Source of the DNA: Escherichia coli
GTDB lineage: Bacteria; Pseudomonadota; Gammaproteobacteria; Enterobacterales; Enterobacteriaceae
Reading direction: 5' to 3' (one strand)
DNA: 64,000 bases
Assembly (NCBI RefSeq): GCF_003790525.1
Contig: NZ_CP033635.1
The stretch's first letter is position 1; each line of letters opens with the position of its first letter. Positions 44,521-47,039 of the stretch are shown here, piece after piece. Made by a program: the position numbers and the translations under genes. The notes beneath the pieces were generated by a model. The model was given only the letters and a program-made list of their open reading frames with translations, made no database searches and had not been told where the DNA came from.

Positions 44521-45708
44521 ATGAACTTATCCCTACGACGCTCTACCAGCGCCCTTCTTGCCTCGTCGTTGTTATTAACCATCGGACGCGGCGCTACGCT
44601 GCCGTTTATGACCATTTACTTGAGTCGCCAGTACAGCCTGAGTGTCGATCTAATCGGTTATGCGATGACAATTGCGCTCACTATTGGCGTCGTTTTTAGC
44701 CTCGGTTTTGGTATCCTGGCGGATAAGTTCGACAAGAAACGCTATATGTTACTGGCAATTACCGCCTTCGCCAGCGGTTTTATTGCCATTCCTTTAGTGA
44801 ATAACGTGACGCTGGTGGTGCTCTTTTTTGCCCTTATTAACTGCGCCTATTCCGTTTTTGCTACCGTGTTGAAAGCCTGGTTTGCCGACAATCTTTCGTC
44901 CACCAGCAAAACGAAAATCTTCTCAATCAACTACACCATGCTCAACATTGGCTGGACCATCGGTCCGCCGCTCGGCACGTTGTTGGTGATGCAGAGCATC
45001 AATCTGCCCTTTTGGCTGGCAGCTATCTGTTCCGCGTTTCCCATGCTTTTCATTCAAATTTGGGTAAAGCGCAGCGAGAAAATCATCGCCACGGAAACAG
45101 GCAGAGCCTGGTCGCCGAAAGTTTTATTACAAGATAAAGCACTGTTGTGGTTTACCTGCTCTGGTTTTCTGGCTTCCTTTGTTAGCGGCGCATTTGCCTC
45201 GTGCATTTCACAATATGTGATGGTGATTGCTGATGGGGATTTTGCCGAAAAGGTGGTCGCGGTTGTTCTTCCGGTGAATGCTGCCATGGTAGTTACGTTG
45301 CAATATTCCGTGGGCCGCCGCCTTAACCCGGCTAACATCCGCGCGCTGATGACAGCAGGCACCCTCTGTTTCGTCATCGGGCTGGTCGGTTTTATTTTTT
45401 CCGGCAACAGCCTGCTAATGTGGGGTATGTCAGCTGCGGTATTTACTGTCGGTGAAATCATTTATGCGCCGGGCGAGTATATGTTGATTGACCATATTGC
45501 GCCGCCAGGAATGAAAGCCAGCTATTTTTCCGCCCAGTCTTTAGGCTGGCTTGGTGCTGCGATTAACCCATTAGTGAGTGGCATAGTACTTACCAGTCTG
45601 CCGCCTTTCTCGCTGTTTATCATCTTAGCGTTGGTGATCGTTGCTGCGTGGGTGCTGATGTTAAAAGGAATTCGTGCAAGACCGTGGGGGCAGCCCGCGC
45701 TTTGTTGA
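44521..45708 (+). CDS. ydeE: MFS transporter
   Basis: 395-aa ORF with 12 predicted TM segments. Confidence 0.85.
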   Translation: MNLSLRRSTSALLASSLLLTIGRGATLPFMTIYLSRQYSLSVDLIGYAMTIALTIGVVFSLGFGILADKFDKKRYMLLAITAFASGFIAIPLVNNVTLVVLFFALINCAYSVFATVLKAWFADNLSSTSKTKIFSINYTMLNIGWTIGPPLGTLLVMQSINLPFWLAAICSAFPMLFIQIWVKRSEKIIATETGRAWSPKVLLQDKALLWFTCSGFLASFVSGAFASCISQYVMVIADGDFAEKVVAVVLPVNAAMVVTLQYSVGRRLNPANIRALMTAGTLCFVIGLVGFIFSGNSLLMWGMSAAVFTVGEIIYAPGEYMLIDHIAPPGMKASYFSAQSLGWLGAAINPLVSGIVLTSLPPFSLFIILALVIVAAWVLMLKGIRARPWGQPALC

Positions 45709-45834
45709 TTTAAGTCGAACACAATAAAAATTTAATTCAGCCTTCGTTTAGGTTACCTCTGCTAATATCTTTCTCATTGAGATGAAAATTAAGGTAAGCG
45801 AGGAAACACACCACACCATAAACGGAGGCAAATA

Positions 45835-45930
45835 ATGCTGGGTAATATGAATGTTTTTATGGCCGTACTGGGAATAATTTTATTTTCTGGTTTTCTGGCC
45901 GCGTATTTCAGCCACAAATGGGATGACTAA
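45835..45930 (+). CDS. mgtS: 31-aa small membrane protein MgtS (YneM)
   Basis: ATG at 45835 preceded by GGAGG; translates to MLGNMNVFMAVLGIILFSGFLAAYFSHKWDD; below the ORF-track size cutoff. Confidence 0.8.
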   Translation: MLGNMNVFMAVLGIILFSGFLAAYFSHKWDD

Positions 45931-45956
45931 TGAACGGAGATAATCCCTCACCTAAC

Positions 45957-45997
45957 CGGCCCCTTGTTACAACTGTGTACAAGGGGCCTGATTTTTA
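45957..45997 (+). terminator. Rho-independent terminator after mgtS
   Basis: GGCCCCTTGT...ACAAGGGGCC stem followed by TGATTTTTAT. Confidence 0.7.
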
Positions 45998-46003
45998 TGA
46001 CGG

Positions 46004-46101
46004 CGAAAAAAAACCGCCAGTAAACCGGCGGTGAATGCTTGCATGGATAGATTTGTGTTTTGCTTTTACGCTAACAGGCATTTTCCTGCACTGATAACGG
46101 A
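46004..46101 (-). ncRNA. mgrR: PhoP-dependent small RNA MgrR (approximate ends)
   Basis: Minus-strand terminator CCGCCGGTTTACTGGCGG plus U8 ending near 46004; PhoP-box-like direct repeat upstream; expected position between mgtS and dgcZ; 5' end inferred from box spacing. Confidence 0.5.
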
Positions 46102-46136
46102 TCGTTGACACAGTAGCATCAGTTTTCTCAATGAAT

Positions 46137-46154
46137 GTTAAACGGAGCTTAAAC
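46137..46154 (-). promoter_or_regulatory. PhoP box (GTTTAA-N5-GTTTAA direct repeat) for mgrR
   Basis: Minus strand reads GTTTAAGCTCCGTTTAAC, matching (T/G)GTTTA-N5-(T/G)GTTTA. Confidence 0.55.
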
Positions 46155-47039
46155 TCGGTGAATCACGTTTTGTTCGTCAATAAACATACAGCGATTTCTT
46201 CCGGTTTGCTTACCCTCATACATTGCCCGGTCCGCTCTTCCAATGACCACATCCAGAGGCTCTTCAGGAAATGCGCGACTCACACCTGCTGTCACGGTAA
46301 TGTTGATATGCCCTTCAGAATGTGTGATGGCATGGTTATCGACTAACTGGCAAATTCTGATACCTGCACGACATGCTTCTTCATCATTATCCGCTTTGAC
46401 AATAATGATAAATTCTTCGCCCCCGTAGCGATAAACCGTTTCGTAATCACGCGTCCAACTGGCTAAGTAAGTTGCCAGGGTGCGTAATACTACATCGCCG
46501 ATTAAATGCCCGTAGGTATCATTAACCAATTTAAATCGGTCAATATCCAACAACATTAAATAAAGATTCAGAGGCTCAGCGTTGCGTAACTGATGATCGA
46601 AGGATTCATCAAGAACCCGACGACCCGGCAATCCCGTCAAAACATCCATATTGCTACGGATCGTCAGTAAATAAATTTTGTAATCGGTTAATGCCGCAGT
46701 AAAAGAAAGCAACCCTTCCTGAAAAGCGTCGAAATGCGCGTCCTGCCAGTGATTTTCAACAATAGCCAACATTAATTCCCGACCACAGTTATGCATATGT
46801 TGATGGGCAGAATCCATTAGCCGAACGTAAGGTAATTCATCGTTATCGAGTGGCCCCAGATGATCAATCCACCGACCAAACTGGCACAGTCCATAAGAAT
46901 GGTTATCCGTTATTTCTGGCTTACTGGCATCTATCGCGACCACGCTGTGAAACATACTTACCAGCCACTGGTAGTGGGCATCGATAGCCTTATTGAGATT
47001 TAACAAGATGGCATCAATTTCCGTTGTCTTCTTGATCAT
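46149..47039 (-). CDS. dgcZ: Zinc-regulated diguanylate cyclase (CZB plus GGDEF)
   Basis: 296 aa from internal ATG (MIKKTTEIDAILLNL...); GGDEF motif RYGGEEF. Confidence 0.85.
   Translation of the reverse strand: MIKKTTEIDAILLNLNKAIDAHYQWLVSMFHSVVAIDASKPEITDNHSYGLCQFGRWIDHLGPLDNDELPYVRLMDSAHQHMHNCGRELMLAIVENHWQDAHFDAFQEGLLSFTAALTDYKIYLLTIRSNMDVLTGLPGRRVLDESFDHQLRNAEPLNLYLMLLDIDRFKLVNDTYGHLIGDVVLRTLATYLASWTRDYETVYRYGGEEFIIIVKADNDEEACRAGIRICQLVDNHAITHSEGHINITVTAGVSRAFPEEPLDVVIGRADRAMYEGKQTGRNRCMFIDEQNVIHRV

Follow-up and report, generated by a model that had tools for sequence, protein, structure and literature searches.

The stretch between ydeE and dgcZ raises the question of whether its short elements are genes and, if they are, which genes and under what control. 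The window analyzed here is 64,000 nucleotides of DNA from E. coli, the strain having 99.99% identity with SMS-3-5, and the span of interest (45709-46160) comprises the ydeE–dgcZ intergenic region and the last 12 nt of dgcZ. The initial annotation, made from the letters alone, had described a 31-codon ORF with a strong ribosome-binding site and its own terminator, back to back with a minus-strand terminator and a GTTTAA-N5-GTTTAA PhoP box, as the expected mgtS/mgrR arrangement. Every one of these elements was found. The ORF (MLGNMNVFMAVLGIILFSGFLAAYFSHKWDD) starts with ATG and occupies 45835-45930 on the plus strand. Its Shine–Dalgarno sequence, GGAGG (45824-45828, plus strand), lies 6 nt 5' of the ATG and has a conservation of 0.5-0.8 across genera. 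An intrinsic terminator follows (45958-45996, plus strand), composed of a hairpin at 45958-45988, the trinucleotide UGA and a run of five U residues at 45992-45996. On the minus strand, a hairpin at 46032..46013 is followed by a U8 run, and the PhoP-type repeat is present at 46154..46138. This repeat is the only match to GTTTAA-N5-GTTTAA on either strand of the 64 kb, with 0.02 expected from shuffled sequences.

The initial annotation had made the assignment depend on alignment, and both mgtS and MgrR match K-12: mgtS (formerly yneM) is identical to b4599 at 96/96 nt and MgrR to b4698 at 97/98 nt. Compared with K-12 MG1655 (1620500-1624500), the window is collinear and free of indels. The genes mgtS (b4599), mgtT (b4775), mgrR (b4698) and dgcZ retain their order, strands, spacing and overlaps, with mgtS in its syntenic place between ydeE and mgrR/dgcZ. 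The seed, terminator and promoter of MgrR and all three PhoP half-sites are identical as well. The loci differ by five substitutions within the 452-bp span, located at 45729 in the ydeE–mgtS spacer, at 45972-45973 in the loop of the mgtS terminator (where they produce V15T in MgtT), at 46100 in MgrR (U4C) and at 46160 in dgcZ. RefSeq labels under 100%-identical matches read ydeE, mgtS, mgtT and dgcZ, and the region is carried by 5416 of 5426 complete E. coli genomes.

The gene mgtS encodes a 31-aa inner-membrane protein. Its translation matches the NCBIfam equivalog NF033842 with 80.6 bits (cutoff 35) and Pfam PF22865 with 88.2 bits (cutoff 27), in both cases over positions 1-31 of 31, and in identical strains RefSeq names it 'protein MgtS'. 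A hydrophobic stretch at residues 6-24 (NVFMAVLGIILFSGFLAAY) corresponds to one helix, which is followed by the charged C-terminus HKWDD; membrane localization of MgtS has been reported (PMC11429745). According to PMC10710835 (citing Wang 2017 and Yin 2019), MgtS binds MgtA, an importer of Mg2+, which is thereby stabilized against FtsH, and also restrains the phosphate/cation symporter PitA. Both yneM and mgrR are listed among the genes directly activated by PhoP (PMC3536696), and mgtS-mgtT is a PhoQP-dependent operon induced at low Mg2+ (PMC11429745).

A covariance-model search, proposed earlier as a check on MgrR, returned Rfam RF01407 (STnc560) with 280.2 bits (cutoff 55, E = 4.9e-64) over model positions 1-214 of 214. 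The 214-nt model takes in MgrR and the two terminators and reaches the bases that immediately follow the mgtS stop codon, and its match (46137..45924) is wider than the 98-nt Hfq-dependent sRNA itself (46103..46006, minus strand). The same model matches at full length in Salmonella arizonae (208 bits, with 280 bits in the window). The one substitution in MgrR relative to K-12, U4C, agrees with the Rfam consensus. MgrR folds with -25.9 kcal/mol (z = -2.9). Its terminator (46032..46013, minus strand) is a hairpin with an 8-pair stem, six of the pairs being GC, and a U8 tail; it is kept in 34 homologs with compensatory changes at 2/7 pairs. The single-stranded core AUCCAUGCAAGC (46048..46037, minus strand) is invariant in 34/34 homologs from about 10 genera and, in light of the literature, probably represents the seed for eptB and pitA pairing. 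In published work MgrR pairs with mRNAs such as eptB, pitA, ygdQ and soxS (PMC10710835, PMC8313858), and it is described as binding Hfq and repressing eptB, pitA and further targets. When RNAalifold was applied to the 34 homologs, the terminator was the only structure retrieved, because the stem-loops at the 5' end are too divergent for a single MAFFT alignment.

Orthologs of mgtS were sought in species-representative genomes with one degenerate DNA pattern covering the F-S-H-K-W-D-D-stop tail. The gene was found in 43 loci, although the flanking genes differ, and in 37 of them MgrR is convergent to mgtS, 62-98 nt downstream. In Salmonella, STnc560 (~90 nt, enriched 29-fold with Hfq) and STnc570 (~190 nt), which is the transcript of yneM, are encoded on opposite strands of the ydeI/ydeE intergenic region (Sittka 2008). 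The convergent pairing of an sRNA with a small protein and the association with Hfq are the same as here. Salmonella differs in that dgcZ does not adjoin mgrR, the flanks being ydeI and ydeE, and in that the third half-site is only partial. STnc560 is equated with MgrR because of its position; a limited literature search found no paper linking the two by name.

The region is almost certainly the E. coli PhoQ/PhoP-controlled Mg2+-stress module, with two convergent transcription units whose terminators stand back to back. The contrary reading, that the ORF, the hairpins and the repeat arose by chance in AT-rich intergenic DNA, could appeal only to the short length of each element. It has practically no chance of being correct: the HMM and covariance-model scores lie far above the curated cutoffs, the alignment reveals a sequence identical to K-12 genes characterized by experiment, and the module is kept across about 10 genera. 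The module is already known, with mgtS, mgtT and mgrR annotated in K-12 and experimentally characterized, and its identification adds nothing new. What the present analysis documents is the identity and anatomy of the genes and the conservation both of the module and of the architecture of its two promoters. The initial annotation had left out mgtT, the upstream frame CDS58, the mgtS promoter, the third mgrR half-site and the overlap of the PhoP repeat with the dgcZ stop codon.

Upstream of mgtS, the sequence AATTCA-GCCTT-CGTTTA (45734-45750, plus strand) ends 12 bp before the -10 element TGcTAATAT (45760-45768, hexamer 45763-45768, plus strand). Both of its half-sites coincide with conserved blocks in a 41-sequence cross-genus alignment. 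With loci anchored on the TAnnnT -10 element, the half-site-N5-half-site arrangement was found at exactly 12 bp in 40/42 loci, and the proximal half-site was 5/5 in 29. The -10 element shows T-A-n-n-n-T conservation (0.9, 1.0, ..., 1.0) with the G at -14 at 0.9. Judged by this conservation, 45734-45750 is probably the PhoP box of mgtS; it is a candidate with a degenerate upstream half-site (ATTCA, 3/5) and a perfect downstream GTTTA. Transcription is predicted to start near 45775. A sigma-70 promoter scan found no promoter for mgtS or mgrR, as expected for activator-dependent promoters that have no -35 element, so the case for both promoters comes from conservation and from published work.

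The hairpin of the mgtS terminator has a folding energy of -21.9 kcal/mol (z = -4.7), and none of 200 shuffled sequences was as good. A simple terminator scan missed it because the stem is bulged, and folding was used instead. A hairpin with a T-run lies 3' of mgtS in 43/43 loci, and several lineages show compensatory changes in its stem. Taken as a whole, the predicted mgtS mRNA folds no better than shuffled sequence (z = -0.9). Long-range pairings were observed in this fold, between GAGG (45800-45803) and CCUC (45946-45949) and between a 5' A-rich stretch and the U-run; they carry no covariation signal because both partners are invariant.

The -10 hexamer of mgrR, TACTGT (46115..46110, minus strand), precedes the 5' end annotated at 46103 by 7 nt. 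Its T-A-n-n-n-T conservation is 0.8, 0.9, ..., 0.9, and TAnnnT was seen in 34/34 anchored loci. In E. coli, three phased half-sites lie upstream of it (46154..46128, minus strand). The outer and middle ones form the published repeat GTTTAAGCTCCGTTTAA (GTTTAA-GCTCC-GTTTAA, 46154..46138, at -52..-36 as published and at -51..-35 as counted here), while the middle and proximal ones form the conserved box CGTTTA-ACATT-CATTGA (46144..46128, -41..-25), which ends 12 bp before the -10. The repeat agrees with the consensus at 10/10 core positions; its flanking T/G positions are A and C, giving two mismatches to the 12-position consensus. As in canonical PhoP promoters such as mgtA and phoP, where (T/G)GTTTA-N5-(T/G)GTTTA stands in place of the -35, the sites are direct repeats with an 11-bp period, and the boxes of both mgtS and mgrR end 12 bp before a TAnnnT -10 with no recognizable -35. 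Unlike the canonical promoters, each conserved box here contains one degenerate half-site (ATTCA at mgtS, ATTGA at mgrR), and the third phased half-site of E. coli mgrR creates two overlapping registers. A further near-consensus match with one mismatch, inside the MgrR terminator (46026..46010, minus strand), was treated as chance because matches with at most two mismatches to the consensus numbered 17, compared with 19.5 expected in shuffled sequences. Elsewhere in the window, a minus-strand segment at 8892..8460 carries a perfect PhoP box upstream of a fimA-like gene.

Two points of interpretation have to be weighed, the first being which pair of half-sites PhoP would use at mgrR. The perfect repeat is the published site, and PMC8313858 (citing Moon & Gottesman 2009) assigns PhoP to -52..-36. 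Comparison across loci points instead to CGTTTA-N5-CATTGA at -41..-25. All 34 anchored loci, drawn from about 10 enterobacterial genera, have GTTTA as the middle half-site, a proximal half-site that fits (A/G)TT(G/T/A)A and a spacer of 12 bp. The pattern used for anchoring partly forces this result; it allowed GTTTA or GTTCA and spacers of 11-13, and only GTTTA with 12 was seen. Conservation in the alignment is 0.6-0.9 for the middle and proximal half-sites versus 0.1-0.4 for the outer one. E. coli alone has an outer half-site that scores 5/5; the score drops to 3-4/5 in Salmonella and in another Escherichia, and in the remaining genera it is mostly 0-2/5. The outer GTTTAA (46154..46149) consists of the Val and stop codons that end dgcZ, and dgcZ adjoins the mgrR promoter only in Escherichia. 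The 12-bp architecture is also that of the mgtS promoter. Nevertheless, the proximal half-site matches at only 3/5 positions. Since PhoP also activates promoters whose box sits an additional helical turn away from the gene, either register could function in E. coli, and binding of PhoP to the three phased half-sites might be cooperative. On balance, the chances are about even that the site that matters is the one at -41..-25, the outer half-site being an Escherichia-specific addition or an accident of the dgcZ codons. The comparison across genera suggests that the perfect mgrR repeat is partly specific to Escherichia and built from the dgcZ stop codon, which bears on the annotation of PhoP sites.

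The second point concerns mgtT (45930-46034, plus strand), a frame of 34 codons whose ATG overlaps the mgtS stop codon as TAATG. It is annotated at the same place in K-12 (b4775) and by RefSeq in identical strains, and the product is identical to that of K-12 at 33/34 residues (V15T). The frame includes the mgtS terminator and, on the strand opposite mgrR, covers the final 29 nt of that gene. Full-length MgtT would require read-through of the terminator, since the mgtT stop codon (46032-46034) is 36 nt past the U-run. In favor of a functional, selected 34-aa protein that would be a third component of the module, translation has been documented by Ribo-RET with SPA tagging and by PIRT-Seq, with low-Mg2+ induction through PhoQP, and the overlapping ATG is present in 43/43 loci. 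An in-frame tandem stop (TAA-TGA or TGA-TGA, 42/43 loci) would also explain the ATG, however, and conservation of the first six codons extends to every codon position, which indicates constraint on the nucleotide sequence. The C-terminal half (GEKKPPVNRR) is nothing more than what the complement of the MgrR terminator encodes. As a protein, mgtT is not conserved beyond Escherichia: the frame ranges from 7 to 83 codons among the 43 loci, and only Escherichia-type loci retain 34 codons with the present sequence. A comparison of two Escherichia species gave five non-synonymous changes and one synonymous change, a pN/pS of ~1.5 that is indistinguishable from two control frames. Moreover, neither deletion nor overexpression gave a phenotype (PMC11429745). 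A functional MgtT is thus considered unlikely. Because of its varying length and its pN/pS, mgtT is best treated as an Escherichia-specific translated frame rather than a conserved family. MgtT is translated and yet does not show the evolutionary signature expected of a functional protein, a warning to those who compile small-protein catalogues from ribosome profiling.

The start of the mgtT frame falls in the conserved block AUGAACGGAGAUAAUCCCUCACCU (45930-45953, plus strand), which lies directly 3' of the mgtS stop codon and just 5' of the terminator and is single-stranded. In the cross-genus alignment, the block is conserved at all three mgtT codon positions, and the form ...GAUAAUCCC(C/U)CACC is seen in most genera. 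It is conceivable, and very unlikely, that the stop junction UAAUG/UGAUG together with AACGGAGAUAAUCCC(C/U)CACC, conserved in 43/43 loci, constitutes a functional RNA element rather than a protein start. Such an element might work through ribosomes that end mgtS translation, re-initiate and move into the terminator's 5' arm; re-initiation would then adjust termination and the read-through that continues antisense to mgrR. Alternatively, the mgtS 3' end might give rise to an Hfq-bound, 3'UTR-derived regulatory RNA with the conserved block, GAUAAUCCCUCACC, as its seed. CpxQ is an example of a 3'UTR-derived Hfq sRNA, and the mgtS 3' end resembles such RNAs, by likeness only, in having a conserved single-stranded block upstream of a conserved terminator. 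The Salmonella yneM transcript showed a 10.5-fold Hfq enrichment (Sittka 2008). A limited search of the RIL-seq literature found no description of a processed 3' fragment, a target or a seed pairing for the mgtS 3' end. Either version, if true, would add a layer of cross-talk to a module thought to be fully described.

The proposed working of the module combines these features with the literature. At low Mg2+, PhoQ would activate PhoP, which would switch on mgtS and mgrR. On the plus strand, a PhoP-type promoter (box 45734-45750, -10 45763-45768) is predicted to drive a short MgtS mRNA ending at 45958-45996, which CDS58 and mgtT would share. On the minus strand, a PhoP-type promoter (half-sites 46154..46128, -10 46115..46110) is predicted to drive the 98-nt MgrR. 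As described in the literature, MgtS would insert into the inner membrane, stabilize MgtA and restrain PitA, and MgtS and MgrR together would raise cytoplasmic Mg2+ and alter LPS modification.

The frame CDS58 (MKIKVSEETHHTINGGK, 45782-45835, plus strand) has 17 codons and ends in a TAA that overlaps the mgtS ATG as TAATG. It is identical to CDS58 of PIRT-Seq (PMC12350097, supplementary file 5), in which the tagged protein gave only a faint western-blot signal. The frame was found in the window and in a K-12-identical locus and in no other locus tested, including that of another Escherichia species; it was rejected as a conserved upstream ORF owing to its absence outside E. coli-type loci.

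The initial annotation had also remarked that functional genes of this window fall below the normal ORF cutoff, and with three small frames rather than one the point is stronger than claimed. With its 31 codons, the mgtS ORF is too short for the ORF lister at its default of 60 aa and surfaced only at min_aa = 20. Such a length cutoff hides real genes: 450 bp hold an sRNA and three translated frames, which have 17, 31 and 34 codons.

The region 45709-46160 corresponds exactly to the ydeE-dgcZ intergenic spacer plus 12 nt of dgcZ (47039..46149, minus strand; coordinates transferred from K-12), and both neighbours were identified by profile matches (YdeE, 799 bits; DgcZ, 515 bits). Direct reading of 45300-46600, with ORFs listed at ≥20 aa, located the 31-codon mgtS ORF, MLGNMNVFMAVLGIILFSGFLAAYFSHKWDD, at 45835-45930 on the plus strand, with the Shine-Dalgarno sequence GGAGG (45824-45828) 6 nt before its ATG. 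The initial annotation had described this ORF and its ribosome-binding site, a terminator of its own, a minus-strand terminator and a GTTTAA-N5-GTTTAA repeat, and had read them as the PhoP-controlled mgtS/mgrR module. All of these elements were confirmed in place. The mgtS terminator is a hairpin at 45958-45988 (+; -21.9 kcal/mol, z = -4.7; 0 of 200 shuffles folded equally well), followed by UGA and U5 at 45992-45996. The minus-strand terminator is the 8-pair hairpin of mgrR at 46032..46013, located by a consensus scan and followed by a run of U.

The mgtS/mgrR interpretation is supported by profile matches and by alignment with K-12. Two profiles matched MgtS end to end, NF033842 (NCBIfam equivalog; 80.6 bits against a cutoff of 35) and PF22865 (Pfam; 88.2 bits against a cutoff of 27). 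Compared base by base with K-12, the window showed 0 indels and 74 mismatches over 4 kb. mgtS was identical at 96/96 nt and MgrR at 97/98, the single change, U4C, being the Rfam consensus base, while the stretch between mgrR and dgcZ was unchanged. The module is, as had been said, a known one: K-12 MG1655 has the same layout, annotated as mgtS (b4599), mgtT (b4775), mgrR (b4698; ncRNA, 98 nt) and dgcZ. Among 5426 complete E. coli genomes, 5416 carried a match to a 651-bp query of the region; identity was 100% in SMS-3-5 and further strains, in which RefSeq annotates ydeE, mgtS, mgtT and dgcZ. What is added here is at the level of annotation only, namely mgtT and its lack of protein-level constraint, the CDS58 frame, the mgtS promoter and a three-half-site mgrR promoter.

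A search of the window with all Rfam covariance models gave one above-threshold match, RF01407 (STnc560), at 46137..45924 on the minus strand (280.2 bits; gathering score 55; full model covered). STnc560 is equated with MgrR because of its position: K-12 mgrR, transferred to 46103..46006 (minus strand), lies inside the match, and STnc560 is listed opposite the transcript of yneM, the former name of mgtS. In the Salmonella ydeI/ydeE spacer, STnc560 is ~90 nt long with 29-fold Hfq enrichment, and the opposing yneM transcript STnc570 is ~190 nt long with 10.5-fold enrichment (Sittka et al. 2008). The 98 nt of MgrR fold into a 5' stem-loop and the terminator (-25.9 kcal/mol, z = -2.9). Across 34 homologs of 89-106 nt, AUCCAUGCAAGC (46048..46037) is invariant and compensatory changes occur in 2/7 terminator pairs; the 5' stem-loops diverge too far for a single alignment. 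The MgrR terminator at 46010-46026 on the minus strand also reads GGTTTACTGGCGGTTTT, with 1 mismatch to the PhoP-box consensus. As the window shows no excess of matches to the consensus at ≤2 mismatches (17 vs 19.5 expected), this likeness was attributed to chance.

At low Mg2+, PhoQ acts through PhoP to activate both promoters (PMC3536696; PMC11429745). MgtS is described in PMC10710835 as stabilising MgtA against FtsH and restraining PitA. MgrR with Hfq represses eptB, pitA, ygdQ and soxS, according to PMC8313858. MgrR targets common to TRIC-seq and RIL-seq include eptB, slyB and lpp, among others.

Homologs were sought in one genome per species using a pattern back-translated from F-S-H-K-W-D-D-stop. 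The scan returned 46 loci, and a true 31-aa-type mgtS was present in 43, from Escherichia, Salmonella, Citrobacter, Enterobacter, Kosakonia, Cedecea, Atlantibacter, Pluralibacter, Phytobacter and Yokenella. A convergent MgrR ending 62-98 nt past the mgtS stop was found in 37 of the 43. Neither nhmmer nor the Rfam model, which scored 208 bits in Salmonella and 88 bits in Yokenella as controls, found MgrR in loci L004, L013, L020, L026, L027 and L016 (Cedecea-type loci and one Pluralibacter MAG). These six keep mgtS, its promoter and its terminator, so the small protein can occur without the sRNA partner. The flanks vary widely: ydeE is a direct neighbour in Escherichia, Salmonella and some Citrobacter but nowhere else, and dgcZ abuts mgrR in Escherichia only. 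mgtS and mgrR thus travel with their promoters as a unit.

Enterobacterial mgtS-mgrR loci were also seen in records labelled 'Proteobacteria bacterium MAG', 'Caldithrix sp. MAG' and 'Chryseobacterium sp. 18061' (L005, L007 and L047). In L007, the MgtS and MgtT proteins match those of E. coli K-12 exactly, and YdeE shares 98% identity with that of the window. These three are probably contaminated bins or mislabelled public records.

Promoters were analysed by aligning 41 sequences and mapping the alignment to window coordinates. That of mgtS has a -10 of the pattern T-A-n-n-n-T at 45763-45768 (+), with a conserved G at -14, and two conserved PhoP-type half-sites, AATTCA/CGTTTA, at 45734-45750 (+). 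For mgrR, the -10 TACTGT (46115..46110, minus strand) follows the same pattern, and the annotated 5' end lies 7 nt downstream. With half-site and spacer counts partly forced by the anchoring pattern and the compared sequences related to each other, half-site-N5-half-site was found exactly 12 bp upstream in 40/42 mgtS loci anchored on the -10, and GTTTA, N6, (A/G)TT(G/T/A)A, exactly 12 bp and TAnnnT in 34/34 anchorable mgrR loci, where a spacer of 11-13 bp was permitted and 12 alone observed.

The conserved mgrR pair reads CGTTTA-ACATT-CATTGA (46144..46128, minus strand; -41..-25). The repeat singled out in the initial annotation, GTTTAAGCTCCGTTTAA, lies at 46154..46138 (minus strand), is unique in 64 kb (0.02 expected) and coincides with the published PhoP site at -52..-36, as given in PMC8313858, citing Moon & Gottesman 2009. 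It is composed of the middle half-site, shared with the conserved pair, and an outer GTTTA (46154..46150). Addition of this outer unit to the conserved pair therefore gives E. coli mgrR three phased half-sites and allows two registers, one with its end 12 bp from the -10 and the other 23 bp from it. Only in E. coli does the outer half-site, which provides the Val-stop codons (GTT TAA) of dgcZ, score 5/5; the score is 4/5 in S. diarizonae and in another Escherichia, drops to 3/5 in S. arizonae, and is mostly 0-2/5 in the other loci. The chances that the conserved register would be the essential one for PhoP are about even.

The 34-codon mgtT frame (45930-46034, +) begins on the final base of the mgtS stop codon (TAATG), crosses the mgtS terminator and overlaps, in antisense, the final 29 nt of mgrR; MgtT differs from that of K-12 by V15T. 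Its translation was reported from Ribo-RET and SPA tagging (bioRxiv 10.1101/511675) and from PIRT-Seq (PMC12350097). It is co-regulated with mgtS in one PhoQP-dependent operon, and its deletion or overexpression gave no phenotype (PMC11429745). The mgtT stop is 36 nt past the U-run of the mgtS terminator, and full-length MgtT would therefore require read-through. The length of the Salmonella yneM transcript agrees with most transcription stopping at the hairpin.

The overlapping ATG is present in 43/43 loci; in 42 of them the junction, TAATGA or TGATGA, doubles as an in-frame tandem stop. Frame length ranges from 7 to 83 codons across the 43 loci, and the 34-codon E. coli-like sequence is confined to Escherichia-type loci. 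Compared with another Escherichia species (91.6% identity, 2.7 kb), mgtT has 6 differences, 5 of them non-synonymous, vs 0/96 in mgtS; its pN/pS of ~1.5, based on small counts, does not set it apart from the other two frames of that DNA. The stretch GEKKPPVNRR at the C-terminus corresponds to the complement of the MgrR terminator. Codons 1-6 fall inside a block (45930-45953) that is conserved at all three codon positions and recurs as GAUAAUCCC(C/U)CACC immediately 5' of the terminator in most genera. From these comparisons we conclude that MgtT is a translated frame restricted to Escherichia, with no visible selection on the protein, and that the conservation is that of an RNA or DNA element.

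In mgtS itself, the absence of differences from that species (L009) extends to synonymous sites, although the surrounding 2.7 kb differs by 8.4% and ~8 changes were expected. This may be due to constraint at the nucleotide level or to the locus having been exchanged recently.

Upstream of mgtS, a 17-codon frame, MKIKVSEETHHTINGGK, at 45782-45835 (+) is exactly CDS58 of PIRT-Seq, whose tagged protein gave only a faint western blot signal (PMC12350097). Its TAA overlaps the mgtS ATG as TAATG, and the region is thus three chained small frames (CDS58, mgtS and mgtT). The CDS58 frame was missing in every other locus tested, another Escherichia species included, and for this reason is probably not a selected gene. 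A conserved 5'UTR block, AAUUAAGGUAAGCGAGG (45787-45803, +), carries a nearly invariant GAGG ~32 nt 5' of the mgtS start, distinct from the real Shine-Dalgarno sequence.

Elsewhere in the window, the PhoP consensus TGTTTAGTCACGGTTTA occurs with 0 mismatches at 8750..8734 on the minus strand (naive expectation ~0.03 per window), and a -10-like CATAAT (8722..8717) lies 11 bp downstream. The box is in a 433-bp unannotated spacer 5' of a fimA-like gene, whose ATG is at about 8459 and which opens a ydeQRST-type chaperone-usher fimbrial operon. The five titles found in a literature search did not appear to deal with PhoP control of this operon. Divergent E. coli keep both the box and the -10, and the two substitutions of APEC O18 leave the consensus intact; the box would predict PhoP/low-Mg2+ control of an unannotated transcript or of the fimbriae. 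Over 60.9 kb, the window shares 99.99% identity with E. coli SMS-3-5 (NC_010498.1). A 1.3-kb IS3-family insertion interrupting ydeR of SMS-3-5 is missing in the window at about 3098-3102, so the source of the window is a close relative and not SMS-3-5 itself.
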